Assembly: GCA_964499015.1 (NCBI GenBank)
Contig: CAZCJA010000004.1
Location: 1 to 58,815, forward strand
DNA length: 58,815 bases
Source of the DNA: an uncultured Elusimicrobia bacterium
GTDB lineage: Bacteria > Elusimicrobiota > Elusimicrobia > F11
Direction: 5' to 3'
In this document: one piece after another, positions 531 to 44,402 of the stretch
How positions within the stretch are numbered: the first letter of the stretch is position 1
How the letters are laid out: each line of letters begins with the position of its first letter
Position numbers and translations under genes: made by a program
Notes under the pieces: generated by a model
Told to the model about the DNA's origin: nothing
Seen by the model: the letters and a program-made list of their open reading frames with translations, nothing else
Database searches by the model: none

Positions 531-1817
531 ATGGTGAAACAGCGTTTAATCAAAATAACGACGCTCTTGCTCTCGGCCATGCTCATCGCGCCGACGGCGC
601 GCCCGTTTACGTCCATGCAGGCCGAGTCGTTCACGGCCCGCGTGGTGATCGATAGTTTTTCGGCGCTGCCTGTGGAAATCCGCCACACGTCTCTGCAGGG
701 AATTTCACCGCTGACGCAGGAAGCGATCATTCAGGGCGAAGCGGGCCTGCGCCCGCGCGTTTCACCGGAATTCGCCGCTCGAATCACTCCCGAAGACGAC
801 CCGGTTATCGTGCCGCCCGATCGCGACGTTATTCGCGTCAGCCTGCGTTACCGCGTCGCTTATCCGGACGGCACGTACTCAGCAGTGGTCGAGCCGCCGT
901 TTGTCGAAGGCCCGGATCCGCTTCCTTTTGCGTTTGAAATTAACCCCGCGGATATTAATGATGGGTCCATTGAATACCAATTGAAAGCCGAGCGCTTTAC
1001 CGGCGATCCGCGTGTCGTGGTGAAAACGACCCATTTCCCCGTGGGCGCGGCGCTGGACCCGGCGAACGTGTGGGCGATCGTGGGACTTGAATCACAGGCC
1101 GCTCAAGTTTTCGACAGTGACGGCGGGCGTTTGACCATTCCCGACGGCAATCCGAACGACGGCTTAAGCGCGGTGGATGTGCCGGAAGGCGCGTTTGGCA
1201 CGCCGTCGCAGGTGACCTTCACCGAAGTGCCGCTGAACAGTCCGTTCGCGCCTCAGTCGGCTTCAGCAAATGGGCCGCTGGCGCTGTATCAATTCAACTC
1301 CGACCTTCCCTTCAATGGTACGCTGATGCTGACGCTGTTGTACCCGGACTTCACCTTTCCGAACGGCCAGGATGGAATCATCGACGGCACGCAAATTTCG
1401 GAGTCCGTTGTCGCCGTCGCCTGGTGGGACGGCAGCCGCTGGCGTCCGCTCGCCGCGCGGCGCAATGCCAATTTGAACACGTTGTCCTTCCGCATCGCCA
1501 ACGGCATGAAGCTATTCGCGATTCTGCCGTCCGCGGCGGCCTCACCCGACGACGCGCGGCCGAGCCAGAAGGTGATCACGCCGAACGGCGACGGCGCCAA
1601 TGACACCCTGATCTTTACGTTCTTCGACGCGGCGTCGAACATTCAAGTGGAGATTTTTGATATCACGGGCCGCCGCATTCGCTCGCTTTCCGGTGTTGGC
1701 ACGACCACATGGGACGGCCGCGACGATTCGGGTGACATCGTTGAAAGCGGTGTGTATATTTACCAATACTCCGACGGCGGCAAGCGCATCAGCGGCGCCG
1801 TGGCGGTGGCCAAATAA
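531..1817 (+). CDS. secreted protein with T9SS type-B-like (gliding-motility C-terminal) sorting domain
   Basis: Signal-like N-terminus MVKQRLIKITTLLLSAMLIAPTA. The C-terminal ~85 aa (ITPNGDGANDTLIF...VEIFDITGRRI...WDGRDDSGDIVESGVYIYQY) follows the TPNGDGxND...WDG...GxYxY consensus of type-B CTDs. TAATG stop/start overlap with the next gene. Confidence 0.7.
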   Translation: MVKQRLIKITTLLLSAMLIAPTARPFTSMQAESFTARVVIDSFSALPVEIRHTSLQGISPLTQEAIIQGEAGLRPRVSPEFAARITPEDDPVIVPPDRDVIRVSLRYRVAYPDGTYSAVVEPPFVEGPDPLPFAFEINPADINDGSIEYQLKAERFTGDPRVVVKTTHFPVGAALDPANVWAIVGLESQAAQVFDSDGGRLTIPDGNPNDGLSAVDVPEGAFGTPSQVTFTEVPLNSPFAPQSASANGPLALYQFNSDLPFNGTLMLTLLYPDFTFPNGQDGIIDGTQISESVVAVAWWDGSRWRPLAARRNANLNTLSFRIANGMKLFAILPSAAASPDDARPSQKVITPNGDGANDTLIFTFFDAASNIQVEIFDITGRRIRSLSGVGTTTWDGRDDSGDIVESGVYIYQYSDGGKRISGAVAVAK

Positions 1818-4800
1818 TGAAAAAGTTAACAGCCTTCATTGCTCTTATGATGTTCGGCGTTTCGGCGGTGTTCGCCGAAGCGACCAAGGAAATTTATTCC
1901 GATGGCGGATTGTATTCAGGCAATCCGCCCGGATCGTTTGTTATGGACATCAGTATGTTTTCTGCCAGCTCAATCAATGGCGATGCCAAATTTGCGGATG
2001 CCACGGCTCCAGAGGGCAAAACCAGTTTTCGCGTTCAAGTTAATAACACGGGCTTTGGCGGCGTTGGTATTTTCAATAAGGCAGATGTGGGCACCGGCAA
2101 TACGCCCCGTGATTACTCGGGGTATGAAAGCGGGGCGCTGCGTTTTTGGTTGAAGAGCGATCGGACATTGAAACTGGAAATCATCTATGGGTTGAATATC
2201 TCCAAGAGTGTGAACGTGAACAGCACGGGCAATCAATGGGTGGAGCAAGTCATTCCGTTTAGCGCGTTTGGAACTCTCAATTTCGCCCAGATCCGTGTTC
2301 CCTTTCAAATTTCCCATCAAGGCGGAGGCGTTTATCCCGTTGTTTTCTTTGTGGACCACGTGCGCTGGACAAAACCCGTCACCGCGATCAACGTGTTCCC
2401 GTCGAACGCGACGGCCTCGGCCGGCAAGCATGTTCTTTACACCTCCGAAGGCCGCGACGCGGCCAATGAATTGGTTTTAATTTATCCGTCATGGAGCGCG
2501 ACCGGCGGCGGTACGATTCCCGCGGCCAAAGCGTCGTCGGCGCTTTTAACCAAGGGCGCCAGCGGCAACGGCACCGTGACTGCGACCGATGGTGCGATCA
2601 GCGGCTCGGCCAATTTCACGCATGTTGCGGTGTCAAACGCTACGTTCGGCATTGTTAGCGAAACCGTTGCGGGCTTGGTTCTGGACACCGATTCGAAACT
2701 GCAGACGTTCCAAGGCGGCGGCGCCCAGGCCATTGTTCTGTCGGATGATTTTGCCAACGCCCCCGAAGGCTCCAAGAGCATTAAGGCGGTCGTCAATCAG
2801 CCGGCGGCCGGCTTCTCCGGCTGGACGGTGCAATGGGGTTTGGAAACGACCACCGATGCCTTTGTTAAAGACATGACCACTTATTACGACGGCTCGATCC
2901 GCTTCTGGTTTAAGGCTCCCGCGGCCCTGCAGAACGTCACCAATTTGGGCATTCGCTCCGGCAACGTTCCGGCGGGCAAGGAAACCTCGAAAGTGCTGTT
3001 GCGCAATTACACGACGTTCGACAACACGTGGCGCGCGGTGACGATCCCGATTGCGGACCTCGCGAAATCTCGGCCGTTCGCCGATATTTCGCGCACCAAA
3101 ATTTTCTTCGGCATCTACGTGGAAGGCTCCAGTGGCGGTTCACAGTCGTTCTGGGTGGACAACGTCCGCTGGGACACGACGCTGCCCGGTCCCATGACGT
3201 CGCTGACGGTTCAGCCGTCGGCGGTAACGATGCCGCCGTCGTCCAAACGCATTTTCTACGCCGTCGGACGCGACGCGGCCAATAATCCCATCGATGTGAG
3301 CCCCGCGTGGTCCATTACGGGAGGCATCGGCACCCTTTCCGCAACGTCGGGCCCGAACGTTCTTTTGACCGCGGCCGGCTCCAATGCCAGCGGCCAGGTG
3401 CGCGCCACGTTCGGCGCGCTGCCGGTCGCCGCGTCAAACGTGACAGTCCAGCCTATTTCCTTTAATCAGTCGTACAACGTGTACTCTGATGCCGGCGCCG
3501 GAGGCGATGTCGGTGTTTCCGCGGGCCCCGCTGGTTTTGGTTCAGCCATCACGTTGGATGAGCCCACGGCGGGCGCGATCGAAGGGGCGAAATTCATGCA
3601 GGCCACCTTCACGCTGCGTAACTCTGCGGCGGGCAACGACGCGTTTGCGGTCTGGTTCGTCGAACAGGCCAATTTCAGCCGCTTCATGCGCGCCTACGAA
3701 ACCGGCTATCTCCGCTTTAACGTGCGCACCACGCACGACTTGGAAGTGTCGGTGCGTTCCGAAAATATTTTACCGGACGCCAACACGGCCAAATTCCGCT
3801 TGAGCGAGCTGGGTATTCCGCGCGATGGCACATGGCAGGAAGTCATTATTCCGCTCGCCGACTTTAAGGCTCGTACCTCCGGCGCGAATCTTCTTAATTT
3901 TGACCAGATCAAAACGTTCTTCGCGATCGGTGCGTTATCGTCCGCGAGCGGCCAGGCCACCAACGCCACGTTCGACGTCGACAATGTGAAATGGCTCACG
4001 ACCGTCGCCGCCGGCACGGACAAGGTTTATCAGGGCTTGGTCGAGAAACAGCGGCCGAGCGGGCTTGTGCGCTCGTTTGAAACCTTGCCGCAGGCCGTCA
4101 CCTACGATCAGGCGCTGGCCGCGATGGCGTTCACGTATCGCCGCGATTTCACCAAAGCCAACGCGATCTTCACGTTCTACCGGAATTTAAATCAGGCCTC
4201 GAATGGCTTCCGCGACGAATACAACGTCGATACCGGCGCGATCATTGATCAAGACCGCTTGGTCGGCCCGAACGCCTGGATGCTTTTGGCCCTCATTCAC
4301 CATCGTGTTGTCAGCGGCTCGACAACCAACGACGCCATGATCGATCAATTGGCCGCTTGGCTGCGCAGCTTCCAGGATCCCGACGGCGGCGTTAAATTCG
4401 GCACGCCCGGTCCTGGCAACGGCACCAACCCCGGCATCAAGGCCACCGAATTCAATTTGGATTGTTACGCCGCCTTTAAAGCGTATGCGCAGCTGCGCAA
4501 CAATATTGTTTTCCGCACCGCCGCCAACCGCGTTCTTGATTGGTTGGGATCGCAGGTCTGGAATGCCGCCCAGGGACGTTTTAACTTGGGTGTTGAACCC
4601 GGCCGTGGCATTAACCCTGACAAGGCGTTGGACGCTTATTCATGGGGGGTCCTTGCGATAGCGCAGTCGACCCATTCCGTTTTAACACCGGCGGCCATCA
4701 ACGGCCTGCTCTCACGCGCTGAGACGGAGTTCCGCACGCAGAAGGCCGCCGATTTGACGGGCAACATTATCGATGGATTTGATTTCTCCGGCCAGCCGAA

Positions 4801-5743
4801 TTTTGCGCCGGACAAAGACGCCGTGTGGCTTGAAGGAACGGGGCAAATGTCGGTGGCCTATCGTGTCATGTCGAATGCGACCATGGCCGACCAGTTCGCA
4901 AACGAAATGGAAAAAGCGATCGTTGACACCTCGGCGACCGGCCAGGGCCTGCCGTACGCGACCAACGCCGGCACGGGGTACGGATTTATCATGGATTCAC
5001 TGCACCCTGCGGTCAGCGCTGCCGCGTGGTATTTGTTCGCGAAGTCCGGTTTCAATCCCATGCAACCGTTCCCCGTGTACGCGGCCAACGTGCGCAACGT
5101 GTCCAACAACGCGCCGGCGGAGGAAGTGACGTGGAACGCGACCGTGCCCAATTCCGGCTGGGTGCGCGGCAATCAATATGTGGAGCTGGCATATCAGCCC
5201 AATGATATTTCCGCGTGGGGCATTCAAATTTATACCGACAACAAGAACGTCGCGATTCAGACGCCGACGTATGTGGACCCGACGCCAGGCAATCTCACGA
5301 ATAGTGATTCCGACCCCGCCGGGTTGGTTCTTGTGACCGGCGGCGCGACGTCGTCTGAAAAACTGCCGATGGCCTGGAGCATCAAGGAATTGGTGACGGA
5401 CCTTCCCGCGCCGATGGAACCGAACAACACGGGCCTGCGCGGCTGTCCGTCGGATCCGAACGCGTTCCAGTGGTTCTACATGCTCGATAAAGGCACGCCG
5501 GCGGTGGATTTATTCGGCTGCGACAACGTCCCGTACACCGGCACCGCGTTCGTTGATGGGAACGATTATTCGCGCGTCGCCAAGGGCGTCAATTCCAGCC
5601 GTACCGCCCATTCCGCGCAAGGGCCGGACGGCTATTTCCCGACGATTTCGCCCGACTATATTTTCTTCCAGACCAACCTCGCCAACGCCGCTCCGCAAGA
5701 CGTTTTCGTCACCAAAGTGAACCTCGAGTTTTTCTTCGAATAG
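1817..5743 (+). CDS. large surface protein: 3 CBM-like modules, 2 Big_2-like Ig modules, (alpha/alpha)6 six-hairpin glycosidase-like region, beta-rich tail
   Basis: Signal peptide MKKLTAFIALMMFGVSAVFA. Three ~170-aa modules each end in FFVDHVRW / FWVDNVRW / FDVDNVKW. Two Ig-like modules share GRDAAN...P(S/A)WS(A/I)TGG, with an identical 15-nt cgcgacgcggccaat at about nt 2452 and 3267. The central region (YDQALAAMAF...GPNAWMLLAL...FQDPDGG...DAYSWGVLA) resembles an alpha/alpha toroid. Confidence 0.75.
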   Translation: MKKLTAFIALMMFGVSAVFAEATKEIYSDGGLYSGNPPGSFVMDISMFSASSINGDAKFADATAPEGKTSFRVQVNNTGFGGVGIFNKADVGTGNTPRDYSGYESGALRFWLKSDRTLKLEIIYGLNISKSVNVNSTGNQWVEQVIPFSAFGTLNFAQIRVPFQISHQGGGVYPVVFFVDHVRWTKPVTAINVFPSNATASAGKHVLYTSEGRDAANELVLIYPSWSATGGGTIPAAKASSALLTKGASGNGTVTATDGAISGSANFTHVAVSNATFGIVSETVAGLVLDTDSKLQTFQGGGAQAIVLSDDFANAPEGSKSIKAVVNQPAAGFSGWTVQWGLETTTDAFVKDMTTYYDGSIRFWFKAPAALQNVTNLGIRSGNVPAGKETSKVLLRNYTTFDNTWRAVTIPIADLAKSRPFADISRTKIFFGIYVEGSSGGSQSFWVDNVRWDTTLPGPMTSLTVQPSAVTMPPSSKRIFYAVGRDAANNPIDVSPAWSITGGIGTLSATSGPNVLLTAAGSNASGQVRATFGALPVAASNVTVQPISFNQSYNVYSDAGAGGDVGVSAGPAGFGSAITLDEPTAGAIEGAKFMQATFTLRNSAAGNDAFAVWFVEQANFSRFMRAYETGYLRFNVRTTHDLEVSVRSENILPDANTAKFRLSELGIPRDGTWQEVIIPLADFKARTSGANLLNFDQIKTFFAIGALSSASGQATNATFDVDNVKWLTTVAAGTDKVYQGLVEKQRPSGLVRSFETLPQAVTYDQALAAMAFTYRRDFTKANAIFTFYRNLNQASNGFRDEYNVDTGAIIDQDRLVGPNAWMLLALIHHRVVSGSTTNDAMIDQLAAWLRSFQDPDGGVKFGTPGPGNGTNPGIKATEFNLDCYAAFKAYAQLRNNIVFRTAANRVLDWLGSQVWNAAQGRFNLGVEPGRGINPDKALDAYSWGVLAIAQSTHSVLTPAAINGLLSRAETEFRTQKAADLTGNIIDGFDFSGQPNFAPDKDAVWLEGTGQMSVAYRVMSNATMADQFANEMEKAIVDTSATGQGLPYATNAGTGYGFIMDSLHPAVSAAAWYLFAKSGFNPMQPFPVYAANVRNVSNNAPAEEVTWNATVPNSGWVRGNQYVELAYQPNDISAWGIQIYTDNKNVAIQTPTYVDPTPGNLTNSDSDPAGLVLVTGGATSSEKLPMAWSIKELVTDLPAPMEPNNTGLRGCPSDPNAFQWFYMLDKGTPAVDLFGCDNVPYTGTAFVDGNDYSRVAKGVNSSRTAHSAQGPDGYFPTISPDYIFFQTNLANAAPQDVFVTKVNLEFFFE

Positions 5744-5848
5744 ACGCGATTTCTCCAGCCATAATTTACATCCCCGTTACAACTTCTTAAGGGCAATTTA
5801 AGACCTCGGTCGTATCCTGTCAGTATCAAAAAACCCAGGGGGATACTG

Positions 5849-8800
5849 ATGCAGCGCCGCATCGCCGGATTTTTAGTCGTCGTTTTTGCGTTCACCAACG
5901 TTTTGTTCGCTTACCAGCCGGAAACAAGCCTCTGGCAAGAGCGAAAAAATCAGGTGCAACTGGCATCTCTCACGCTTCCGGCGTTCCCGCCCGCTCCTCT
6001 TAAAACCGTTCCCGCTGTTTCTGCCCCCAAAAAAGTTCAACACATTGCGAATTTGCCGGCCACGATTTTTTCGCACGTCCGCTTAGCGGAGCGCCATGAG
6101 GCGTCCTCGCCCAACGGCCGCGTTCTCTTCCTCCAGGACGTCCACCAGAACGCCGACGCGCAAAACCATCTCGCGCAGGTCTTGAAGAAAATGTCGGCGG
6201 CCGGCGGTAAAACCGTCGCCGTCGGTTTGGAAGGCACCAATGGTGATTTGGGCGTCGCCGCGTATCACGCCGGCGGCGAGAGAGAAATAAGCGACGCCGT
6301 CGCCGAGTCGTTCTTCGCCAGTGGGGACTTGTCCGGCCCCATGTACGCCGCGCTGACCACGCATGCCGAGAAAAAGAATGCGCCCCTCGATTTTTACGGC
6401 GTCGATGATGCCGCGCTGCACGCGCAAAACGTCGCCGCTTACAAGGCCGCGCACAAAGACCAGGCTTCCGTTCTGAAATCGCTTAAAGCCCGCCGCAAAG
6501 AAATCGCCCGCAAAAAAGAATCCATCTACAACCCACTGCTTAAGGCATTTGATGCCCGCGTTCAGCAATATCGCTCCAATGAAGGGTCTCTGGCGGATTA
6601 TCTGCCGCTTTTGGCCAAGGGCAGCCATTCGCTGCAAGTGGAAATTTTCCTTGAAGCCTCGCGCCTTGAGAAAGAAATGGACCAGCGCCGCGTGGAAGCG
6701 GAGCGTGCCCATGTCCTGGAAAAATTAACGTCCAAGCTGAATAAGAGCGAGCTCGATACGCTGCTCGCGCGCAGCCTGCAGGTGCAGAACGGCGAAGAGA
6801 GCCACGCGTCGTACTACGGATTCTTTAAAACCATTTGCGAACGCCATGGGGTCGACTTAAATAAAACGCCGGCCTTCAACGATTATGTCCGCTACGTGAT
6901 TTTATCGGGCGAAATCAAACCCGAAACGCTTTTCGCCGAAACGCGCCGCATGGAAGAGAAAACCTTTGCCGCTCTGGTCAAAAACTCCGCCGAGCGAGCG
7001 CTGGTTCAACAGGACCGCCGCTTGTTCTTGTCCGAGAAGCTGGCCGATTTCGCGTTGGTTCCGGAAGAATGGTCGGAATATAAAACCCTCTCCCCAACCC
7101 CTCTCCCGGTGGGAGAGGGTCTCGGGGAGAGGGCGTTCCAACGCTTTTACGAACTGGCCGACGCTCGCAACGAGGCGATGGTGGACAATCTTTTGGCCTC
7201 GGCGAACAAATCCAAAACATCCACGATGGTTTTGGTCGCTGGCGGTTTCCACACGGCGGGCATCACCCGGCTTTTGAAGCAAAAAAATATTTCTTATATC
7301 ACCGCCGTCCCCAAAATCAACAACGTCGATACCGCCCAGGGCAGCGCTTATCTTTCCGTTTTCGACCGCGAAAAAACCCCGCTCGAACTGATTTTGTCCG
7401 GCCGCCAGCTGTTTTTGGCCGACAACCCAAATCGTTTCGTCCCGGAAGCGGCCATCACCAAACAGGCCATGATTGCCAGCGTTCGCCCGGACCACCAAGG
7501 TCCGGTCACGTTGCAGCGCGGCGGTGAGACGCTTAAATTTTATGCCGGCAAGCAGCCGCGCCTGTGGCAACGCGCTCTTTTGAGCCCCGTTACCGCCGTC
7601 CGGCGGATAGCCAACAAGGAAACCCGCTGGTTTCGCACGCGCCATATGCGCTTATGGATTGTGGCCGCCATTATGGCCACCGGTGGCGCTCTTTATACCG
7701 ATCTCATTTCGATCTCACCGAAAGTCCTGAGTTATTTGAGCATGGGCGCGGGCGCGCTTGCGATGGTTCGTTATTCGCAGACGCCTGAGCAGCACGCCGA
7801 CGAATTGGCGACGCTGGAGAAGCTTGATGAGGAATTGAAGAAAGAAGACGAAACGCCCGGCAGCGGTACGTTCGAGAGCATTGTTTATATTTCCGATCAG
7901 CACGGTACGATCGATAAATTTGACGCGCTTGTTTTGGACGCGCTGCGCCGCACGCCCGCGGGCAAAAGTATTTCCACGCATTTTAATTTTTCCCCGGATG
8001 TGCCGTATGAGCGCCAACTGAACGCCATTGGTAAAAGCCTCAATGATTTTAAGGGGGAAATTTTTTTCCATAACTTGGGCGATTTGCTGGACCGCGGCCC
8101 CAACGGTTTGCAGGTGTTCGAACATTCGGAAGAGCTGATAAATTTCGGCTTGTCCGACTTCGTCATGGGCAACCACGATTTATGGGCCTACATGAATCTT
8201 AAAGGGCTCCATTTGCCGTGGTACGAAACGTTCAACTTCTATGGATACATCGACGAATTCGACGCCCATTTTGGCAACGTGAAAGATTTGGCGATCCAGC
8301 AGACGAACAGCGGCGGTTTGCAGCCCGCATGGTGGGCAAAAAAGTGGGCGGAGTTCACGTCCTATCAGCAGGCGCGTCAGAAAAATTATTGGGGAAAAAC
8401 CGTGGATGTGCTCGTTAACGGCGAAATTGTTGACGGCAAGCAAAATCCTGCCACCGGGCTTTATGCGCGTGTTTCGTCCGGTTTGGACGCCAAACAGGTC
8501 AAGCTCTGGAACAAACTGCGCGGTGACAATGGAAATGATACCCGGATTCAAACCGGCACGCGGGCCGTCGGCGAAGTGTCATTGGTGTGGTGGAAAGACC
8601 TATTAAAAGAATTTAAGGCCGAATACAGCGTCATTCAAGAACAAGCCGGATTCGACGAAACTCTTCCTTCAAATGTGGCTTGGTCTGAAGCCATCGACAT
8701 GATGGAGGGCCTCATTATTCCGGAACTTCGTTCCGAAATCGAACAGCGTGTTAAGGCCGGCGATTGGTGGTGGCGTGTATTCGAGGCCATCAACTCCCAA

Positions 8801-11800
8801 AATTATTCCTCTCCGGAATGGTGGGCCAAAGATTGGCTGTTCCATGATAAGTGGGGCACGTCCGTCCTGAAGGAGCTGAACGCCATGGGCGATGAGGACG
8901 AGGAAATTGTAACGCCCGCCAATTATTTGCTTCATCCGATGATGCGCCGTTTGACCGACTTTTACGATAAAAACTTCAACCTTTACGTGCGCGATCAATA
9001 TCAAGACGTCGGTTTTCATGCCTACTTGCCGGTCGATCCAACGGGCCACTTTTCATTTACGTATAAAGGCGTCAAATACGTTGGCGTCGGAAGCAACGGC
9101 CGCAAGCGGGGTTGGGATGAAGGCTTAACGCGCATTGCGCGCGACGTCCGGGAAGCGGCGTGGATTTTTGACGTCTACGAAGCGTTTGCGCTCATTAATT
9201 ATTGGTACGCGGACAATACCACTCATGCCAAACGCGGCAGCGTCGCGGAGATCGAAAATAAATTTGGCCCGGAAAAAATCGCGCAGCGCAACGGAATGCT
9301 TAATCTTTATTTCTGGGGGCATATCCCTTTCCATGAATTCTATGGGCTTGGAAAGGCAACGCTCGGCATCATATGGTCGTTCATTACCAATAAGACCTCG
9401 GTAAAAACCGATCACGGCATGGGTGAGCGCTTTGGCGCGCGAGGCGCCTATGTATGGCGTACGCCCGTGCTCGCTCAGCTGATCGGCTACGAACACAAAG
9501 ATTCGCGAAAAATTGTCGAAAATCCGCGCACCGTTAAAACGGTGGCCGGAGTCGATACCGTCGCTGAGGAAGTTTTGTTTCAAAACCCGCCATTGGAACG
9601 CGAAGATTCGCTGCCGCGCGTGAAGTCCGCCGTTCAAAAGCGCATTCAGCAACTGCGCGACATGTTGAAACAGTCTTCGGGCGTGCAAAGCAATTTGTCC
9701 ATCGGCTTTGCGTTGTTCGGCGCGTCGATGGTCCAGCAGGGCAATCCATGGGGCTATCCGCTGCAGTTCCTGGGCATCGCGGGCATGGCGCTGATGGCGC
9801 TCGGCATGGTGTACGTGTCCGCGCCGGCCTCGACCGATTCGGCCGTCACGGAAGTGCAGAAGCATTATCCCAACTTGGATGGCAAAAATATTTTTGAAGT
9901 GGCGATGGAAATGTCGCTGACGCCGGACTTGTTCAAGAAGCTCGAAGCAAAATCCGCGGAATTCCAAAATTCAGACAACGTTTCATGGCACGAAATCATG
10001 CAGCGCGTGGCGATGGGGGAATCGATTGGCGGCATCGGGCCGCTTTTGTCCGAACGTTTCATGAAGCTCGCTGATTTGGGCGCGAAAGTGTACGCGGTGG
10101 CGCCGTTGTACAACCAGGTTTATTTCCAGCGCGTTAAAGACGGCCAGTTCACGATCGAGCGTTTGGATTCCGGCAAATATCTCCGCTCCGTTTTGGAAGA
10201 CACCAAGCACACGCTGCACGTGAAACTTTACAACGGCAATGTCGTGCACGTGAAGGTGTGGCAATCGATCTATAAAAACTCGGTTATTTATTATTTGGAC
10301 GCGCCGGAGATATTCACGGTCGCGTACGAGAAAAAAGAAGAGTCGGAAGAACGCACGCAGCAGAATTGGACGCTGGCCCGCGGCTCGCTGTACCTGGCCA
10401 AGGAATTCAATATTCAGCCGGACATTATGATCCAGAGCGAAACGCCGACGGTTTATGCCAACGCGCGCTTGTTCAGCGACGAATTGCAGAACGATCCGTT
10501 TTTCCATAACACGATCCGTATCTACAACGATCACACACCGGTTCCTTATGCGCATCCGCATCTTTCGCTGAAGCGCGTTCAAGAGCTTTTGCTTCGTCCG
10601 ATGTATTACCTGCGCTTTCCGTCGAAAGTAACGCAGGGCGGCGACGGGGAATATTATGTCGTTCCGCCGGAAACGCCTTTGGAAGAAGGCGGCCAGGCCA
10701 CCGTCGACATGACGAAAGTGCTTATTATCGCCTCGGACGACGCGTACGCGGTTTCGCGGGAACACAAAAAGGTCATGCAGTACATGCCGGTCCTTCGTGA
10801 CGTCGCCAACTTGGTGAGTCATATCACCAACGGCGTTCTTCCGGCACGCTGGCAGGCCCCGGAATTCGCCAACGCCGATAAAATGAGTGACGACGAGCTT
10901 ATTGCCGCCAAACAGGCGAAAAAAGAAATCCTTCTGAACTTTGTCAAAGACATGCTGGGCAAAGACGACGGTTGGAAAGAACGCGTCGCCGGCCTGACGG
11001 TCGTGCGTTTTATGCGCCGCATCACCGGCTACAAACGCTTCGATTTGATTAACGAAATTTTGACCGACTCGGCCAAGCTGGATGAATTCATCGCCTCCGA
11101 GACCATGCTGCTTTTGGGCGGCCGCGTTCACCAGGAAGACGATTGGAGCAAGCGCCAGGTGAATTTCTTGGCGTGGCTCGTTTACGCACCGGCCGATCAG
11201 CTCGTCAATCACGACAAGATGATGCTGTTGTCGCAGGGCGACGTGAGCAAATACGAAATGATTTCAACGACGCTGAAGCGTCTGGCGGCCGACGAGGAAC
11301 TATTGCAGAAAGTGCGCGACCGCGTGCTGTTCTTCCCGAACTACAACATCTACGACGCGCCCATTTTGGTTCAGGGCGCCGACGCGACCGTGATGATGGC
11401 CGACAAAGGAAAAGAGGCCGCGGCCACGGGCTTCCAAAAAGACCAAATGAACGGCAGTATCGTTCTGGCGGTCGGTGAAGAAGGCGCGATCGACGAATCC
11501 GTCTATTTCGCGCACGAGGAACGCCTGGATGTCTTGGTTGACGCTCTCAGCAAAGACCACAGCGACAAAGGCCGCAAAGATTTTGCTTATTTGGCCGGCA
11601 ACGGTTTTGAAATTCCGTCGAACGGTCCGAACGTCGACAACAACGGCAAATACACGGGCCCGACGTCACGCGGCCTGTTGGACACTATTATTAAGTTGAG
11701 CAACGTACGCCACGGCAAAACGCCGCTGGGCAAAGAAGGGCACCCTGAAATTTATCCGATGATGATGCGCAACGCGATTGCGACGACGCCGCAGGTGAGC

Positions 11801-13357
11801 GTTGAACGCACGGCGATGGACATGCTGGCGTTTATGTCGAATTTGGTGCGCCGTCACGACCACGAAGAGGACATGTACAACTTGGGCGCCCGTTTGGCGC
11901 GCAATCTGCACGACCGTCAATGGAAACTGCGCGAATGGTTAAGAGACGCGCGCAACGGCGAGCCGTTCACATGGACATATTTCGACGGCAAGGCCCGTCA
12001 TCAGCCGTTGTACCGCCATGAAGGTCCGCACGGGCATGACACGGGTATTCTCAATTTGATTGAAGGGTTCCATCAAATTATTCGCATGGGCCGTTTGGGA
12101 CGCTGGAGCATTCTTTTTCACACGGCCGATCCGGACAACAACCATCTAATCAACTATGTGCGCCATTTGGTGGCCAATTCGCCTGAGCTTCAAAAACAGG
12201 AAGAATTTAACCAATCGCTGACATTGCTTGAGTTGGAAATGAAAAGCATCGCCAATTCCATCCACAGTTTGGAGCGCACGATTGACGGTTTGCGTGTCGA
12301 TCTCGCGGTGGCCGCCGACCGCACGCTGATCAAAGGCGTTCAGGACAAATTGACGGAAGCGGAAAACCAGCTCACCACCAATCAAGACGCGTTGGTCGGC
12401 CAGGCGTATTATTTGTTCGGCTTCTTAGAAGCCACGGTGAAGCCGGCGTCGGAATTGCGCAAAAACACGCGTTGGGCCCTGCGCGACATTTTGCCGGCCG
12501 CGGCTATCGCCCCGATTTTCTTGCTGGGCAACACGAATATCGATTGGCTGGCGATTTCGTTCTACGGATTAACGGCGTTAATGATCGGCAGCACCGCCGC
12601 GGCGCTGTTTTATGTCGGGCGCTGGGCCGTGAAAGGCTACCTCAATCAGCAGCGCGACGTGACCGGCACGGCCATGCGCTTGAAACACAATCTTGGCGGC
12701 GTTTCTTCCGCGCGCAACGATGCGGAGCGCGCCGAAGCCGATGCCTCGCTCGCGGAATTGCTCGCGCCCATCGAAAAGCTGGGCGTGCGCGATTTGGGCC
12801 GTTTGAAACGCACTCCGACTGAGCGCCGCGCCGCTCTGTTTGAAATTTTCTTGGCGCTGAGCACCGATAAATACGCGCCGACCGTGCGTACCGCGGAGCA
12901 GTTCCAGGAAAACGACATGAACCTTATTATCCCGGGCACGATCAACTTGGACGAGATTCGTACCAAGCTGGACGGTTTCTACAGCAACGCGGGCAGCCGC
13001 AACATGGAAAACAAAGTTCTGCTCGCACCGGAGGCATACGCTCAGTATCGTCGCACGCTGAACGCGGAATTCAGCGGTCTAACGTTCTTGAATATCAACG
13101 ATATTCGCGATGTCAAAGAGCTAGCCACGCTGGCCAATGGCACGACGCCGCGGCAGGTGAACCTGCTGTTTGACGACGCCTCCTACTTGCCGACAAGTCT
13201 TGTGGACGCGCTCTATAGCCTCAGCGAGACGGACCGGGCGTTTAGGGACCGGATTGTCCTGCAGTACCTGAAAAACGGGTTTGCGGCGGCCAGCAGCTAC
13301 ATGTTCAAGCTCAATGAGATGATCGGCTTCGCCCTTCTGGCGGGCAGCCAGGCTTAA
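5849..13357 (+). CDS. 2502-aa membrane-tethered multi-module protein: ChaN/Tiki-like + class-3 FBPase-like metallophosphoesterase + GT35 alpha-glucan-phosphorylase-like + unknown C-terminal domain
   Basis: Single uninterrupted ORF with a GGGGGA SD 6 nt upstream of the ATG. N-terminal signal/anchor MQRRIAGFLVVVFAFTNVLFA. Hydrophobic helix pairs lie at nt ~7650-7770, ~9695-9830 and ~12487-12630. Metallophosphoesterase motifs: ISDQHG (~7890), GDLLDRGP (8078-8101), GNHD (8167-8178). GT35 motifs: GGIGPL..APLY (~10030), HTPVPYAHP, TNGVLPARW, RFMRRITGYKRFDL (~11003-11050), EAAATGFQKDQMNGS (~11413-11458). Confidence 0.85.
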   Translation: MQRRIAGFLVVVFAFTNVLFAYQPETSLWQERKNQVQLASLTLPAFPPAPLKTVPAVSAPKKVQHIANLPATIFSHVRLAERHEASSPNGRVLFLQDVHQNADAQNHLAQVLKKMSAAGGKTVAVGLEGTNGDLGVAAYHAGGEREISDAVAESFFASGDLSGPMYAALTTHAEKKNAPLDFYGVDDAALHAQNVAAYKAAHKDQASVLKSLKARRKEIARKKESIYNPLLKAFDARVQQYRSNEGSLADYLPLLAKGSHSLQVEIFLEASRLEKEMDQRRVEAERAHVLEKLTSKLNKSELDTLLARSLQVQNGEESHASYYGFFKTICERHGVDLNKTPAFNDYVRYVILSGEIKPETLFAETRRMEEKTFAALVKNSAERALVQQDRRLFLSEKLADFALVPEEWSEYKTLSPTPLPVGEGLGERAFQRFYELADARNEAMVDNLLASANKSKTSTMVLVAGGFHTAGITRLLKQKNISYITAVPKINNVDTAQGSAYLSVFDREKTPLELILSGRQLFLADNPNRFVPEAAITKQAMIASVRPDHQGPVTLQRGGETLKFYAGKQPRLWQRALLSPVTAVRRIANKETRWFRTRHMRLWIVAAIMATGGALYTDLISISPKVLSYLSMGAGALAMVRYSQTPEQHADELATLEKLDEELKKEDETPGSGTFESIVYISDQHGTIDKFDALVLDALRRTPAGKSISTHFNFSPDVPYERQLNAIGKSLNDFKGEIFFHNLGDLLDRGPNGLQVFEHSEELINFGLSDFVMGNHDLWAYMNLKGLHLPWYETFNFYGYIDEFDAHFGNVKDLAIQQTNSGGLQPAWWAKKWAEFTSYQQARQKNYWGKTVDVLVNGEIVDGKQNPATGLYARVSSGLDAKQVKLWNKLRGDNGNDTRIQTGTRAVGEVSLVWWKDLLKEFKAEYSVIQEQAGFDETLPSNVAWSEAIDMMEGLIIPELRSEIEQRVKAGDWWWRVFEAINSQNYSSPEWWAKDWLFHDKWGTSVLKELNAMGDEDEEIVTPANYLLHPMMRRLTDFYDKNFNLYVRDQYQDVGFHAYLPVDPTGHFSFTYKGVKYVGVGSNGRKRGWDEGLTRIARDVREAAWIFDVYEAFALINYWYADNTTHAKRGSVAEIENKFGPEKIAQRNGMLNLYFWGHIPFHEFYGLGKATLGIIWSFITNKTSVKTDHGMGERFGARGAYVWRTPVLAQLIGYEHKDSRKIVENPRTVKTVAGVDTVAEEVLFQNPPLEREDSLPRVKSAVQKRIQQLRDMLKQSSGVQSNLSIGFALFGASMVQQGNPWGYPLQFLGIAGMALMALGMVYVSAPASTDSAVTEVQKHYPNLDGKNIFEVAMEMSLTPDLFKKLEAKSAEFQNSDNVSWHEIMQRVAMGESIGGIGPLLSERFMKLADLGAKVYAVAPLYNQVYFQRVKDGQFTIERLDSGKYLRSVLEDTKHTLHVKLYNGNVVHVKVWQSIYKNSVIYYLDAPEIFTVAYEKKEESEERTQQNWTLARGSLYLAKEFNIQPDIMIQSETPTVYANARLFSDELQNDPFFHNTIRIYNDHTPVPYAHPHLSLKRVQELLLRPMYYLRFPSKVTQGGDGEYYVVPPETPLEEGGQATVDMTKVLIIASDDAYAVSREHKKVMQYMPVLRDVANLVSHITNGVLPARWQAPEFANADKMSDDELIAAKQAKKEILLNFVKDMLGKDDGWKERVAGLTVVRFMRRITGYKRFDLINEILTDSAKLDEFIASETMLLLGGRVHQEDDWSKRQVNFLAWLVYAPADQLVNHDKMMLLSQGDVSKYEMISTTLKRLAADEELLQKVRDRVLFFPNYNIYDAPILVQGADATVMMADKGKEAAATGFQKDQMNGSIVLAVGEEGAIDESVYFAHEERLDVLVDALSKDHSDKGRKDFAYLAGNGFEIPSNGPNVDNNGKYTGPTSRGLLDTIIKLSNVRHGKTPLGKEGHPEIYPMMMRNAIATTPQVSVERTAMDMLAFMSNLVRRHDHEEDMYNLGARLARNLHDRQWKLREWLRDARNGEPFTWTYFDGKARHQPLYRHEGPHGHDTGILNLIEGFHQIIRMGRLGRWSILFHTADPDNNHLINYVRHLVANSPELQKQEEFNQSLTLLELEMKSIANSIHSLERTIDGLRVDLAVAADRTLIKGVQDKLTEAENQLTTNQDALVGQAYYLFGFLEATVKPASELRKNTRWALRDILPAAAIAPIFLLGNTNIDWLAISFYGLTALMIGSTAAALFYVGRWAVKGYLNQQRDVTGTAMRLKHNLGGVSSARNDAERAEADASLAELLAPIEKLGVRDLGRLKRTPTERRAALFEIFLALSTDKYAPTVRTAEQFQENDMNLIIPGTINLDEIRTKLDGFYSNAGSRNMENKVLLAPEAYAQYRRTLNAEFSGLTFLNINDIRDVKELATLANGTTPRQVNLLFDDASYLPTSLVDALYSLSETDRAFRDRIVLQYLKNGFAAASSYMFKLNEMIGFALLAGSQA
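7086..7133. repeat. nested double-hairpin CT/GA-rich repeat inside the giant gene
   Basis: CCCTCTCCCC aac CCCTCTCCC ggt GGGAGAGGG tctc GGGGAGAGGG. Outer arms are 10 bp and inner arms 9 bp, all perfect. Translated in frame as SPTPLPVGEGLGER. Confidence 0.8.
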
Positions 13358-21753: not shown

Positions 21754-22842
21754 ATGAAAAACGAATGGCGCGGCGTCGCGCTGCAGATTTTGGCCGTCAA
21801 AGCGGTGGTGTTGCTCGCCGGCACGATTATTTTTCTCGCCAAATCCAATAATAACGCCCTCTTTATGCAGAGCTGGTACAAGTGGGACGCCCTTCGCTAT
21901 CTCGCCATTGCCACCGAGGGATATGCGCGCACGGGCAAATACGTCGAAAATGTCGTGTTCTACCCGCTCTTCCCCGCTTTCATCCGTCTCTTTAGCTTTC
22001 CTGTATTCAATTTTCAATTGGGCGGTTTCATCGCCGCGCATTTTTTTTCGTTTGCCGGATTGATGACGTTCTATGCATTGGCCCGCCATGAGCTCGGCAC
22101 CGAAAACGCGCGCTTGTCATTGTTAGCGCTGCTCGTTTTCCCAACGGCATATTTCTTTCACGTTCCATACACCGAAGGTTTGTTTCTTTTATGCGCCGCG
22201 GGTTCGCTGTACGCGGCGCGAACGGGCCGCTGGTGGCTGGCTGGCGTGGCGGGCGCCGCGGCGGTGCTGACGCGCGTCACCGGTCTCGCTCTTTTTCCGG
22301 CGTTGGTCGTGGAGTTTTACATGCAGCGCCGCGAGACGGGCATTTCTTGGAAACATTCGGCCTGGCTTATGCTCCTGCCGATTGCCTGCGGCGTATATTT
22401 GCTGATCAATAAAACGATTACCGGGGACTGCTTTGCGTTTATGAAATTTCAAGCGTCGTCTTGGAACCGTCAACTGGCATTTCCGTGGATGGCGTTTTGG
22501 CGAAAGTTCATGATGATCATTACACAACGGCCCAGCGGGTATTGGTTCCACGTGGGCATCATGGAATTGGCGGCGGGGCTTTTGTTGATCGCGGGGGCGA
22601 TTCAGACGTTTCGTAAAGACCGTCCGACCTACGGCGTGTTCGTTCTAGGGGTGGCTCTGTTGAGTTTAAGTACGACATTCATGCTTAGCGTGCCGCGTTA
22701 TTTTCTGGGCGCGTTTCCCATTTTCTTTTTGCACCTTCGGACGGGGAAAAAGTCCCCGCTCGTCACGGCGGCCGCGCTGGCAATGGCCGTGTTGTATGGG
22801 TTTTACTTCACGCGCTATTTGAAAGGCGCGTGGGCGTTTTAG
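21754..22842 (+). CDS. GT-C fold membrane glycosyltransferase (PIG-V-like mannosyltransferase family)
   Basis: About 9 hydrophobic segments. WYKWDALRYLAIATEGY...FYPLFPAFIRL matches the WD..Y..IA..GY / FFPLYP signature of PIG-V-type mannosyltransferases. Confidence 0.6.
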   Translation: MKNEWRGVALQILAVKAVVLLAGTIIFLAKSNNNALFMQSWYKWDALRYLAIATEGYARTGKYVENVVFYPLFPAFIRLFSFPVFNFQLGGFIAAHFFSFAGLMTFYALARHELGTENARLSLLALLVFPTAYFFHVPYTEGLFLLCAAGSLYAARTGRWWLAGVAGAAAVLTRVTGLALFPALVVEFYMQRRETGISWKHSAWLMLLPIACGVYLLINKTITGDCFAFMKFQASSWNRQLAFPWMAFWRKFMMIITQRPSGYWFHVGIMELAAGLLLIAGAIQTFRKDRPTYGVFVLGVALLSLSTTFMLSVPRYFLGAFPIFFLHLRTGKKSPLVTAAALAMAVLYGFYFTRYLKGAWAF

Positions 22843-22844
22843 AT

Positions 22845-24350
22845 ATGGCCAAGCTGAAGCGTTTTTCTTTCCCGATAGCGCTTGGATTATTTCTTCTATT
22901 CGTTTCTTTTTACCTGTTCAACTGCGCTAAGTGGTTGCCGTTCGACTTCGATGAAATCGAGCACGCGCATGCCTCTTGGATGATCTCAGCGGGGCTTAAG
23001 CCTTATGCTGACTTTCATGAGATGCACACGCCATTCTTTTGGCTGCTTTATTCGCCATTTCTGCGCAATCTCCCGCCCGTTTTTGAATCCTTGATTGTCT
23101 TAAGGCAAATCAACATAGCCTTCTCGATATTGGCGCTGCTCTTTCTGGCTTTGTTGATTCGTAAAAGTGTCGCCGGCGCCCAAAAAGACTGGGCGGTGAT
23201 AGGCGCCTTGCTTTTAATGGTTGTTCAGCCCAACGTGGTTCAGGTGCTGACTGACTTTCGAGCGGACCATTTGTCTTTGGCTCTGGCATTGCTTGCGCTG
23301 TTGTTGGTGCCTGACGGAGATCGGCGTAATTATTTTCGAGCGTGGTTTTTTCCGGCGTTCATTATGACATCCGGCTTGTTGTTAGACAGCAAGCTGGTTT
23401 TTCTGGCGGTCGGCGGATTTGGCCTTCATTTCTTTTTCAATTTTCAAGAAAACCGGAATAGCTTCAAGCCTTTCGTGTTGGGTGTCGGTTGCGGAATCAT
23501 AGCCGCGATTGGCGGAGCCGTACTTCTCTGCGCGTTAAATGGGATTGATATTAAAAAACTTATTCAGCTGACATTTGTGTTCCACTACCGTCTTAATCAA
23601 TCCTTGTCCATGAACCAGGGCCTCGCGCAGGAGTTGGTGAGCCAGGTCACAAAACAATATGCGGCGCCGCTGGTGATTTTTTTATTGGGGCTAGGAGCCA
23701 TTTCCAGTGAGGTGTTTAAACACCGCGCTAAGACGGAGCGCCTTTCGTTGATTGTTGTCGGTTTTATTTTGGTCCAAGTAAGCTTGGTTAAATTTCCCTT
23801 TAAGCAATATGTCTACTCGATCTATTTGCTATGGGCCGCCCCCATGGCTTTGTTCTTATCCAGAGGCTTTCAGGGGCGATGGCGATGGGCCAGTGTTGGC
23901 TTACTATTGTTGCTTCTAATTCCCAGCGTAGGGTTTGAATGGGGGCGCTGGCAGCAAATAAAAAACAAGCAATACACCAAAGATCAGATTCAGACAGGTA
24001 ACCGGATTCTCCAATTGGTTCCCCCCGATGCCCATGTTTTTGCCCAGCCGCCATTTCATCCGATTTTTCGAAAAGATTCACTTTATTCTTGGATTGAACA
24101 TGTAGCACCTCAAGGGTCTTCAACCGAAGATCTAATGATGGGCTTTCCCGATTTCCGCGACCTGTTTACAGCGGAGGGGTATGAGAAGCAGTTAACAGAA
24201 CGCCCGCCTATGTTGGTCGTGATCGCCTCGGGGTCGGAGAGAGGATATGCGAAGGCGATTCGAAAATTCGTGACCCTTCCAGCGCACAGTTATCAGTCGT
24301 ATCCGATGGGGGGATACACGGTTTATTTATCCCAAGCAAGCGACCGGTAG
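22845..24350 (+). CDS. GT-C fold membrane glycosyltransferase (ArnT/PMT-like)
   Basis: Polytopic, with the acidic first-loop motif FDFDEIEHAHASWM and a soluble C-terminal domain. The ATG at 22845 lies 3 nt after the stop of the upstream gene; the track start is a GTG at 22830. Visibly more AT-rich than neighbouring genes. Confidence 0.55.
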   Translation: MAKLKRFSFPIALGLFLLFVSFYLFNCAKWLPFDFDEIEHAHASWMISAGLKPYADFHEMHTPFFWLLYSPFLRNLPPVFESLIVLRQINIAFSILALLFLALLIRKSVAGAQKDWAVIGALLLMVVQPNVVQVLTDFRADHLSLALALLALLLVPDGDRRNYFRAWFFPAFIMTSGLLLDSKLVFLAVGGFGLHFFFNFQENRNSFKPFVLGVGCGIIAAIGGAVLLCALNGIDIKKLIQLTFVFHYRLNQSLSMNQGLAQELVSQVTKQYAAPLVIFLLGLGAISSEVFKHRAKTERLSLIVVGFILVQVSLVKFPFKQYVYSIYLLWAAPMALFLSRGFQGRWRWASVGLLLLLLIPSVGFEWGRWQQIKNKQYTKDQIQTGNRILQLVPPDAHVFAQPPFHPIFRKDSLYSWIEHVAPQGSSTEDLMMGFPDFRDLFTAEGYEKQLTERPPMLVVIASGSERGYAKAIRKFVTLPAHSYQSYPMGGYTVYLSQASDR

Positions 24351-24492: not shown

Positions 24493-25092
24493 ATGATTCA
24501 ACGCGCGTTACTCCTTATGTTTCCTCTAACCTTGGCCCTTCCGCTGCGCGCGGAACCCTTGACGTTTGCCTTATCGAGTGAGAACGGGCCGCGGCAAATC
24601 CGTTTTACCTCCCAAGCCCCGCTGGAAGTGGTTGAAGGATCGGCTGAAAGCTTTTCCGGAAGCGCCACGCTCGATTTCGATGCCGAACCGGTCATTTCGG
24701 AAGCGTCCGTGTACGTCGAAGTAAAAGGCATGCAGACCGGGGTGCCGCTGCGCGACACTCACATGAAGTCCGCCGAATGGCTGGATGCCGCGGCCTACCC
24801 CAACATTCTTTTCACGCTGACCAGCGTGGGCCTCGCCAAGAAAAAAAACAAAGACACATGGTTTGTGAACGCACAGGGGGGATTTTCAATGCGCGGCATC
24901 AACACAACGGTCGCGGTGCCGCTGACCATCACGCGCAAAAAACGCGGCAAGCAAGAAGAAATCACGGTTTCCGGGCGGTTTAACGTCAAACTTTCGGAAC
25001 ACGGCGTGCGGGGACCGGCGGGAATGCGCATGATCGGCGCGCGCGTCGCGGATGTGGTGCGCGTTGATTTAAAACTTATAGGAATTCGTTAG
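24493..25092 (+). CDS. YceI-family (polyisoprenoid-binding) periplasmic protein
   Basis: Signal peptide MIQRALLLMFPLTLALPLRA. YceI-like blocks VEVKGMQTGVPLRDTHMKSAEWLDAAAYPNILF. The start is set after tRNA-Tyr; the track ORF 24421 overlaps the tRNA. Confidence 0.8.
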   Translation: MIQRALLLMFPLTLALPLRAEPLTFALSSENGPRQIRFTSQAPLEVVEGSAESFSGSATLDFDAEPVISEASVYVEVKGMQTGVPLRDTHMKSAEWLDAAAYPNILFTLTSVGLAKKKNKDTWFVNAQGGFSMRGINTTVAVPLTITRKKRGKQEEITVSGRFNVKLSEHGVRGPAGMRMIGARVADVVRVDLKLIGIR

Positions 25093-26531: not shown

Positions 26532-27427
26532 GGGCGCCCTCCAGAGTCGCGAAATTGATAAGTGAGACTGACGCGGTGCAGGTCGTTGAATTGGCTGGCC
26601 AGTCCGAACGCGTAGCCGATTTCCATGCTTTGAAACGCGAAGCCGATGCCAGCCGAAAAACCTTTCGCCGCGTAGCCTGTTTGGTAGCCGGCGCGTAGAG
26701 TGAGAGGCGCAAGCCCGATTTCGAGGCCGAGCGCCGGGCGCAGTTTTTCTTCGTTAATGTCGTACGGCGCATCAAGGAGTAGCAGAGCGGGATTCGACCG
26801 TTTGCCGATTTGCCGAGTCACGCCGATACGCGCCACGCGCGGCAACGCGTGTTCATGGCGGATGTACTGCAGGCGCTTGCCGAAATTTTGCAGCGCGCCG
26901 CCCACAGTGTATTTACGGCCAAGAAAAATTTGGACGCCGGCGTCGACGGCCATGGTGCTGGCTTTTCTGGATTCGGCCAGTTCCGATGATAAATATTTAC
27001 CGCTCACGCCCGCTTTGAACCCGCCGACGCTGCGCGCATAGCTTAAGCCCGCCATGAGATCTTTTTGGGCGGTCACAGTTCGCGCCGATACGCCATCGAA
27101 CAGTTCGACGTCCCCGCCGTTGTAGTAGCCGATGGAAATTCCGAGCGCGTGATGCGGGGTTGCCGCGCCGTACAACACTTGCCCGAAGGCGTCATCCGAC
27201 AGGCCTTTTTTATAAAGCAGGGACGCTTGCGGGAAAGCGAGGGTGGCGAGTGAGGCCGGGTTGTAAGTTTGCGCCGAAACATCGTTATTCGCGGCGGTAA
27301 AGGCTTCGCCGAGCGCGGATGCGCGCGCACTGGGCGATTCGAGCAGCGTCAGCCCCGCCGCATGCAGCGTGTATGCGTTTGAAATCAGAGCCCCAAACAA
27401 AAAGCTGCCGAGCCAACGTCTCGCCAT
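26528..27427 (-). CDS. PorV/PorQ-like outer-membrane beta-barrel
   Basis: The signal peptide is followed by SARASALGEAFTAANNDVSAQTYNPASLA, matching the PorV/PorQ-type pattern gARa.alGgAf.A..dD..a...NPAgL. Alternating beta-strand pattern throughout. 4-nt overlap with phoA. Confidence 0.6.
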   Translation of the reverse strand: MARRWLGSFLFGALISNAYTLHAAGLTLLESPSARASALGEAFTAANNDVSAQTYNPASLATLAFPQASLLYKKGLSDDAFGQVLYGAATPHHALGISIGYYNGGDVELFDGVSARTVTAQKDLMAGLSYARSVGGFKAGVSGKYLSSELAESRKASTMAVDAGVQIFLGRKYTVGGALQNFGKRLQYIRHEHALPRVARIGVTRQIGKRSNPALLLLDAPYDINEEKLRPALGLEIGLAPLTLRAGYQTGYAAKGFSAGIGFAFQSMEIGYAFGLASQFNDLHRVSLTYQFRDSGGRP

Positions 27428-44378: not shown

Positions 44379-44402
44379 TATTTTCCTAACATAGCCGCCA
44401 TC

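Follow-up and report, generated by a model that had tools for sequence, protein, structure and literature searches.

Giant proteins that carry many enzyme domains on a single chain have been described in Omnitrophota, where 'multi-enzyme metabolic cluster' proteins of at least 10,000 amino acids (aa) are tiled with enzyme Pfam domains and punctuated by transmembrane (TM) segments; they often start with a signal-peptide-like sequence, and the same paradox of topology that we weigh below was reported for them (bioRxiv 10.64898/2026.06.07.730766). Here we describe a 7.5-kb gene of an uncultured Elusimicrobia bacterium, at positions 5849–13357 on the forward strand of contig CAZCJA010000004.1 (assembly GCA_964499015.1). 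The window that we analysed is the whole stretch of 58,815 nt to which these positions refer. The gene encodes a TIKI/ChaN-like head (module 1), a metallophosphoesterase (module 2), a glycosyltransferase family 35 (GT35) alpha-glucan-phosphorylase-like module (module 3) and a C-terminal module (module 4), separated by pairs of hydrophobic helices. Sequence comparison indicates that it is one member of a very large modular family of giant membrane proteins, mainly from Elusimicrobiota, with outliers in Omnitrophota and Auribacterota. The original prediction, made from this DNA alone, had presented a fusion with an architecture not known to have been described. A unique fusion is not supported: the gene belongs to a family that numbers over 7,000 clusters and is built of a conserved head, variable enzymes and a conserved tail, and comparable multi-enzyme, TM-punctuated giants are the subject of the Omnitrophota preprint (bioRxiv 10.64898/2026.06.07.730766).

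The Omnitrophota giants are the closest precedent, and the family would be a variant of this recently noticed kind. In both, many distinct enzyme Pfams are found per TM-punctuated chain, and the cargo domains held in common are starch synthase (PF08323), GT1 (PF00534), PGM, ROK, signal peptidase II, HEAT/Adaptin and methyltransferases. They differ in size and host, our protein having 2502 aa and its family, from Elusimicrobiota, mostly 1,400–6,100 aa. The word 'Tiki', and 'ChaN' as a family name, are absent from the text of that preprint (bioRxiv 10.64898/2026.06.07.730766), West-Roberts et al. 2023 (bioRxiv 10.1101/2023.11.21.568195) gave no relevant match for the names of the head family, and our literature search found no description of the family or of its head-tail signature. 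This signature gives a testable point of entry to the unexplained 'multi-enzyme giant proteins' of Omnitrophota. MARTX toxins are a second known design with similar traits: their ends are conserved, the enzyme modules inside are mosaic and the chain includes a domain of the processing-protease type; the family differs from them in its housekeeping-like cargo and its many chromosomal paralogs.

Family, cargo and assembly support

A search with the whole protein retrieved 55 giant relatives of 1,400–4,300 aa, whose similarity to the query, except for one ortholog (P0002), is confined to aa 1 to ~527. With a HMMER profile of this head, a search of 1.84 billion cluster representatives (clusters at 50% identity) retrieved 10,207 proteins at E<=1e-3, 7,089 of them at E<=1e-30. 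Among the matches, the head is always N-terminal and present in one copy, and the lengths of the members range from 550 to 6142 aa. When one-genome-per-species GTDB data were scanned with a 100-aa sub-alignment of the head, the best 80 of 148 genomic matches all lay in metagenome-assembled genomes (MAGs) of Elusimicrobiota, with at least 5–8 loci per MAG. For a few relatives, the annotation is Omnitrophica or Auribacterota. Plasmids and phages gave no matches to the family, and a mobile-element origin was rejected on these grounds.

Every member starts with a shared unit of ~550 aa, composed of a hydrophobic N-terminal helix and a TIKI/ChaN-fold domain, and nearly all apparently complete members end in a tail of ~35 residues. 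The cargo between them varies, belongs to enzyme types that are normally cytoplasmic and is commonly separated by short hydrophobic hairpins. It includes sigma-70, phosphoglycerate kinase (PGK), class-I aldolase, full-length PutA, GT5 glycogen synthase with a glpX fructose-1,6-bisphosphatase (FBPase), transaldolase, phosphoenolpyruvate (PEP) synthase/PPDK, PGM with a nucleotidyltransferase, GH77, GT4, histidine phosphatase, inositol monophosphatase, epimerases, methyltransferases, kinases, Lon/AAA, HPr, Fic, subtilase and signal peptidase II. Sigma factors, glycolytic, gluconeogenic and glycogen enzymes, kinases and proteases are thus packed between one head and one tail in a family of over 7,000 clusters. 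Module sharing between members was patchy and mosaic in an all-versus-all comparison: of the 188 members sampled, none but the query and P0002 has the FBPase-like and GT35 modules, and in P0002 an extra transaldolase module lies between the two. One member of 2087 aa (P0007), annotated by JGI as a primary sigma factor, contains a complete sigma-70 (regions 1.2–4) at aa 764–1018, directly after the head and with no hydrophobic segment between. The giant genes are embedded among housekeeping genes. No conserved partner genes were detected around P0002, P0024 and P0015, and no other family members are encoded within the window.

The open reading frame (ORF) of the query is complete and uninterrupted, with an ATG at 5849, 2502 codons and a stop at 13357; a run of 2502 codons without a stop cannot have originated by chance. 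Direct reading of the sequence places a Shine-Dalgarno-like AGGGGGA at 5837–5843 (forward strand, as are all features of this gene given below), 5 nt before the ATG, and the MQRRIA start is common to the query and P0002. A terminator was looked for 3' of the gene and not found. The ortholog, of 3190 aa, was independently assembled from two other sequencing runs/samples, and its locus is syntenic with ours (CHU_C protein, carbohydrate-binding module (CBM) protein, giant gene, aroD and RNase T). Its collinearity with the query extends over aa 1 to ~1300 (48% identity) and resumes at aa 2211–2502; the BLAST alignment formally reaches aa 1476, with similarity fading past the second hairpin. In addition, a JGI fragment (P0074) is collinear with aa 1683–2502 at 55% identity. 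Junctions 1 and 2 between the modules therefore recur in P0002 and junction 3 in both P0074 and P0002, so that all three have been seen in independent assemblies.

The layout first proposed, a single 7.5-kb ORF with four soluble modules and three pairs of hydrophobic helices, was confirmed by the reading frame and by hydrophobicity scans, and the recurrence of the junctions in a syntenic ortholog from two other samples and in P0074 excludes, as far as sequence data can, the chimeric assembly against which it had cautioned. The chance that an error of assembly or gene calling fused separate genes is accordingly negligible: its sole argument is the unusual architecture, and against it stand the continuous frame, the recurring junctions and the same build in thousands of relatives.

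Head, tail and enzyme modules

The family-defining part of the head is a predicted TIKI/ChaN-fold hydrolase core at aa 90–495 (6116–7333), recognized through Pfam PF04187, invariant residues and an AlphaFold2 (AF2) model. In the model, the core has a parallel sheet and is confident over aa 90–495 (pLDDT 80–95), and a ~270-aa insert made up entirely of helices (approximately aa 186–455; 6404–7213) splits its alpha/beta structure. The only match to the head in Pfam and NCBIfam was marginal, with Cofac_haem_bdg/ChaN (PF04187) at 28.2 bits against a cut-off of 27.7; among 18 relatives, the head was matched by PF04187 in nine and by PF01963 in one. An alignment of 18 sequences shows D97, H99, Q105, E128, R440, G465, G466 and H468 to be invariant, of which D97, H99, E128, R440 and H468 are the predicted catalytic residues. 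In the TIKI-fold peptidase RRSP, the corresponding set is E3900-x-H3902, E3930, R4001 and H4030, that is, two His, two Glu and an Arg (PMC6254334). The spacings agree closely (29 residues in the head versus 28 in RRSP, and 28 versus 29), and the one substitution concerns the first acidic residue, a Glu in TIKI enzymes and an Asp in the head. From these residues, the D-x-H/E/R/H set appears to reproduce the TIKI constellation and the head looks catalytically intact. The ChaN/Tiki-like assignment of module 1, first made with low confidence, is thus borne out by a Pfam score above the cut-off and by the intact constellation.

In PrgY, the TIKI domain is followed by membrane helices, and the head resembles TraB/PrgY in this order. 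It differs from the TIKI superfamily in the helical insert that interrupts the core and in being joined to kilobases of enzyme cargo. In profile comparison the insert was weakly, and not significantly, similar to calmodulin/EF-hand pairs (E 0.03–0.2), and a PDB sequence search with the head profile returned only such insignificant calmodulin-like matches to it.

Directly after the core lies the most conserved peptide of the family, at aa 497–527 (GSAYLSVFDREKTPLELILSGRQLFLADNPN; 7337–7429), with the consensus YLSVFTQEKTPLEKLFxGEKLFLA in the family alignments. The region was modelled poorly, with pLDDT <50 for aa 497–510 and 515–603. It is possible that this junction peptide is an autoprocessing (cis-cleavage) site or a pseudosubstrate.

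Module 4 (aa 2262–2502; 12632–13354) is shared only with the orthologs P0002 and P0074 and had no Pfam match. It had been called unrecognizable, which holds for the module as a whole and fails for its end, as the last ~34 aa (aa 2469–2502; 13253–13354), closing with GFALLAGSQA-COOH, form the family-wide tail. Its pattern, counted from the C-terminus, is P(-21), D(-16), L(-15), L(-11), A(-8), R(-7), I/V(-5), A(-4) and A(-1). Alanine is the last residue in 124 of the 188 sampled members, whose C-termini were those of P0001–P0055 and P0166–P0298. A hidden Markov model (HMM) of the tail matched 78 true C-termini and, apart from three weak internal sites, no internal copies of the motif. We also considered a universal C-terminal domain bigger than the tail and rejected it, since BLAST clustering of the last 300 aa gave many small families, with the query grouped only with P0002. 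The tail may serve for export, act as a degron or be bound by the head as a ligand. Two non-giant homologues of module 2 (P0058 and P0061) end in SQA and GQA, respectively.

Module 2 (aa 642–1282; 7772–9694) is a binuclear metallophosphoesterase according to its Metallophos match, its invariant motifs and AF2 and Foldseek results. The motifs are SDQHG (aa 682–686), GDLLDRG (aa 744–750), GNHD (aa 774–777), H1057, GH (aa 1157–1158) and DHG (aa 1188–1190). Metallophos (PF00149) was matched at 22.2 bits on the isolated module and at up to 23.1 bits, against a cut-off of 21.5, and it was matched in all 12 members of the module-2 family, where the metal-binding motif residues are invariant. The module had been described as class-3 FBPase-like, and class-3 FBPase of Bacillus subtilis (Fbp, ~640 aa) has its metallophosphoesterase motifs in the same order. 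That enzyme is a member of FBPase_2 (PF06874), whereas module 2 scored only 10.6 bits (E 0.16) with this profile, far below the cut-off of 27; weak FBPase_2 matches were found in 7 of the 12 family members, the best with an E value of 0.0012.

The AF2 model of module 2 (pLDDT 77, pTM 0.79) had a single significant Foldseek match in the PDB, 9a7j_A (641 aa; E 1.1e-5, prob 1.0), aligned over its full length but with a TM-score of only 0.30. This entry is an integrative, predicted model labelled F16PC, which we take, from UniProt naming, to be the class-3 FBPase of B. subtilis. A PDB sequence search with the module-2 profile retrieved only the generic GD..DR/GNHD core of PnkP and ApaH, and no class-3 FBPase chain, even at E 10. 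The likeness to class-3 FBPase therefore holds at the level of the fold, given the match to 9a7j_A and the failed FBPase_2 threshold, and Pfam membership does not. Module 2 belongs to a separate family of ~670 aa, distantly related to class-3 FBPase.

Stand-alone homologues of module 2, one of them in a Propionivibrio MAG, are 40–45% identical to it and carry classical cleavable signal peptides, unlike class-3 FBPase; these relatives are secreted proteins and not the soluble cytoplasmic enzymes of gluconeogenesis to which the earlier view had likened the module. Their gene neighbourhoods showed no conserved partner and no clue to the substrate. Signal-peptide-bearing, stand-alone metallophosphoesterases of ~676 aa with a class-3-FBPase-like fold (P0060, P0063 and P0065–P0071) were obtained as a by-product, as an apparently secreted phosphoesterase family in Proteobacteria.

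Module 3 (aa 1329–2212; 9833–12484) is short-type GT35 alpha-glucan-phosphorylase-like and consists of a core at about aa 1330–1985, followed by a helical extension of ~230 aa. It was matched by TIGR02094 (more_P_ylases) with an E value of 4.9e-20 (71.8 bits, below the NCBIfam cut-off of 191.7) and by PF00343 (Phosphorylase) at 29.4 bits on the isolated module and 25.7 bits in the whole-protein scan, on either side of the cut-off of 27. A subfamily profile (A3) compared with the PDB matched alpha-glucan phosphorylase (8.9e-24) and glycogen phosphorylase (5e-16). In this comparison, GGIGPL (aa 1394–1399), the HTP of DHTP (about aa 1561–1564), TNG..W (TNG at aa 1660–1662), RRITGYKR (aa 1723–1730) and EAAATGFQK (aa 1856–1864) all aligned with the canonical motifs of solved phosphorylases, the last two with RRFATYKR and EASGTSGEK of chain 20yr_A. 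These two motifs are invariant in the subfamily, and K1864 occupies the position of the pyridoxal phosphate (PLP) lysine. The claim of a GT35 module that retains this lysine is therefore upheld by the TIGR02094 match and the motif alignment. We interpret module 3 as a probable divergent short GT35 phosphorylase that keeps the PLP lysine and the phosphate motifs.

The module shares the signature motifs of GT35 phosphorylases (GG.G loop, HTP, TNG..W, RR..YKR and EA..T...K), but its core has ~650 aa compared with ~800–850 aa in classical enzymes and, unlike known GT35 enzymes, it has membrane hairpins on both sides. Some 85 proteins of ~570 aa are stand-alone relatives, 33–36% identical to it and devoid of signal peptides; NCBI annotates two as glucan phosphorylases of Elusimicrobiota. 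These homologues of 9833–11800 (P0075–P0159) make up, as a second by-product, a short GT35 subfamily that scores well under the TIGR02094 cut-off, and we found no solved structure of such a size (~570 aa).

Membrane sidedness and rival explanations

The N-terminal hydrophobic helix, at aa 5–23 (MQRR-IAGFLVVVFAFTNVLFA-YQPE; 5861–5917), was located by hydrophobicity scan and is conserved in the family. It has the look of a signal peptide or signal anchor, and a family-conserved E..W.ER(R/K) motif comes after it. A Tat signal was rejected, as the QRRIAGF of the query is not conserved across the family. The three hydrophobic pairs lie where the original prediction had placed them. Pair 1 (aa 602–640; 7652–7768) is preceded by a K/R-rich flank (RRIANKETRWFRTRHMR). 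Pair 2 (aa 1283–1325; 9695–9823) is composed of a weak helix of 13 aa, the loop QQGNPWGYP and a strong helix at aa 1307–1325. Pair 3 (aa 2213–2256; 12485–12616), with a strong helix at aa 2236–2254, has K/R-rich flanks on both sides and two conserved prolines in its first helix. Each pair includes a helix that is short or weak (13–15 aa). The first two pairs are conserved in P0002 and the third in P0002 and P0074.

Charge distribution points to the side of the membrane on which the modules lie. In 116 isolated hairpins of the family, K+R per residue was 0.057 in the loops and 0.144 and 0.153 in the two flanks, against a background of 0.118. Since K+R, and not D+E, is depleted in the loops, this is a positive-inside pattern that would place the flanks in the cytoplasm. 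The N-flanks of the query's three hairpins are all K/R-rich. Most of the family cargo needs ATP, NAD or RNA polymerase, which favours the cytoplasmic face, and in P0007, P0039, P0047 and P0054 cargo of this type follows the head without a clear TM segment between; the lone candidate (aa 803–821 of P0039, with a simple score of 4.2) falls inside the PutA N-terminal domain. The lack of signal peptides in the stand-alone GT35 relatives was also counted for the cytoplasmic face, and it is reasonable to place all modules on one side of the membrane.

We tentatively favour, as the best reading of these data, a membrane-tethered enzyme array that faces the cytoplasm. The hairpins would be in-out-in anchors, and all modules would therefore be kept on the cytoplasmic face. 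Modules 2 and 3, which keep their catalytic residues, could then form a tethered array for the turnover of alpha-glucans and sugar phosphates. The head, junction peptide and tail would be the handle by which all members are assembled, processed or turned over. Should the modules be active and tethered in this way, small-celled phyla arrange central metabolism on the membrane, unlike model bacteria.

Several observations weigh against a cytoplasmic tethered array. The TIKI assignment of its head is limited by structure and profile comparisons: Foldseek of the head model found no significant match in the PDB, the TIKI superfamily members EreC, BcR135 and HopBA1 being among the insignificant ones (E 1.2–1.7, TM-scores 0.12–0.28), and hhalign gave no match between the head profile and YbaP of Escherichia coli (TraB family; probability 0.2%); the large insert and a single-sequence template limit the power of these comparisons. 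The hairpins were called with simple hydrophobicity scales rather than a trained predictor, and several of the 13–15-aa 'helices' may not span the bilayer. The N-terminus looks like a Sec signal peptide or an N-in anchor, which would put the head and the parts contiguous with it outside the cytoplasm. ChaN, PrgY and TIKI are typically extracytoplasmic, and the signal peptides of the stand-alone module-2 homologues point the same way.

The converse arrangement, in which a true signal peptide or N-in anchor precedes a head and modules that out-in-out or re-entrant hairpins fix to the periplasmic face and that act on extracellular or periplasmic glucans and phosphate esters, is a doubtful but serious alternative. 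It would account for the signal-peptide-like N-terminus with its conserved c-region TNxxFA, for the exported relatives of module 2 and for the neighbouring surface proteins of the type IX secretion system (T9SS) and CBM type, conserved in the ortholog; the same topology call was made for Omnitrophota multi-enzyme giants with a signal peptide and TM segments (bioRxiv 10.64898/2026.06.07.730766). However, K/R are depleted in the hairpin loops and not in the flanks, a conserved K/R-rich stretch follows right after the N-terminal helix, which is unusual for an exported mature N-terminus, the GT35 relatives are cytoplasmic as judged from their lack of signal peptides, and cargo such as sigma-70, PGK, PEP synthase, kinases, AAA/Lon and PutA would have no supply of cofactors outside the cell. 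Either topology could be combined with self-processing, in which the TIKI-like head is an endopeptidase that cuts the chain at the YLSVF.QEKTPLEKLF junction peptide or in the module linkers, releasing or activating the enzymes, and the tail marks the uncut precursor. We consider this unlikely, despite the intact catalytic set, the endopeptidase activity of TIKI and RRSP (PMC6254334), the single, always N-terminal copy of the head and the position of the most conserved segment of the family, a poorly structured peptide, right after a protease-like core. The other module boundaries showed no conserved cleavage motif, esterases and non-enzymes share the TIKI fold, there is no split-gene evidence, and the hairpins would keep released pieces bound to the membrane. 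If modules are indeed exported or processed, a new polyprotein or secretion principle would follow.

A broader delivery system has also been considered, in which a signal-peptide-led TIKI head and an Ala-ending tail bracket interchangeable modules that are exported and proteolytically released. Their destination would be the periplasm or else a partner or prey cell, and the hairpins would be membrane-insertion or translocation elements. We regard this system as distinctly improbable. Were it true, a new logic of secretion and processing would be at work, by which housekeeping-type enzymes, even sigma-70, are moved out of the producer's cytoplasm. Least probable among the functional readings, with only a slight chance of being correct, is an effector akin to MARTX or AB toxins, exported by means of the tail as secretion signal, with hairpins that insert in the target membrane, modules that enter a host or prey cell and a TIKI-like protease that frees them there. 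The mosaic cargo between conserved ends, the protease-like domain, the marginal hydrophobicity of the hairpins and the occurrence of related giants in predatory/episymbiotic Omnitrophota agree with it, and RRSP, a MARTX effector, belongs to the TIKI-fold peptidases (PMC6254334). Nevertheless, MARTX toxins have RTX repeats, a CPD and a type I secretion system (T1SS) context, whereas the Pfam scan of our whole protein found no CPD, RTX repeats or other MARTX domains and no T1SS genes lie beside the query or at three other loci. The many paralogs per genome amid housekeeping genes, the lack of plasmid or phage copies and a cargo of housekeeping-type enzymes, not known toxins, speak against it as well.

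Surroundings of the gene and other features of the window

The neighbours of the giant gene include an ABC-2 transporter, aroD and RNase T, and CBM/T9SS surface proteins adjoin it. Its position beside CBM-rich surface proteins, pointed out from the start, is real and conserved in the ortholog P0002, but is not a family-wide feature. T9SS-related genes were found at 531–5743 and 26528–27427; this set comprises a CHU_C C-terminal-domain protein, a PorV-like protein and a 1308-aa protein with weak CBM30/SGBP matches. An alkaline phosphatase family gene on the reverse strand (25089–26531) adjoins the PorV-like gene.

At the ortholog locus (L001), the CBM protein and the giant gene are set apart by two additional genes (5930–9920), for a 1031-aa FlgD_ig protein and a 269-aa protein, where the window has only the interval 5743–5849. 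Together with the transaldolase module of P0002, they point to recent turnover of modules and genes.

Elsewhere in the window, a 1060-aa protein (33429–36611) had multi-haem cytochrome c matches and a match to the hydrazine-synthase-alpha middle domain (E 2e-16). Strong negative AT skew was observed at 22001–24000 (-0.27) and 44001–46000 (-0.19), and these regions coincide with ORFs for polytopic membrane proteins rich in Phe and Leu codons, at 22830–24350 and 44403–46193.

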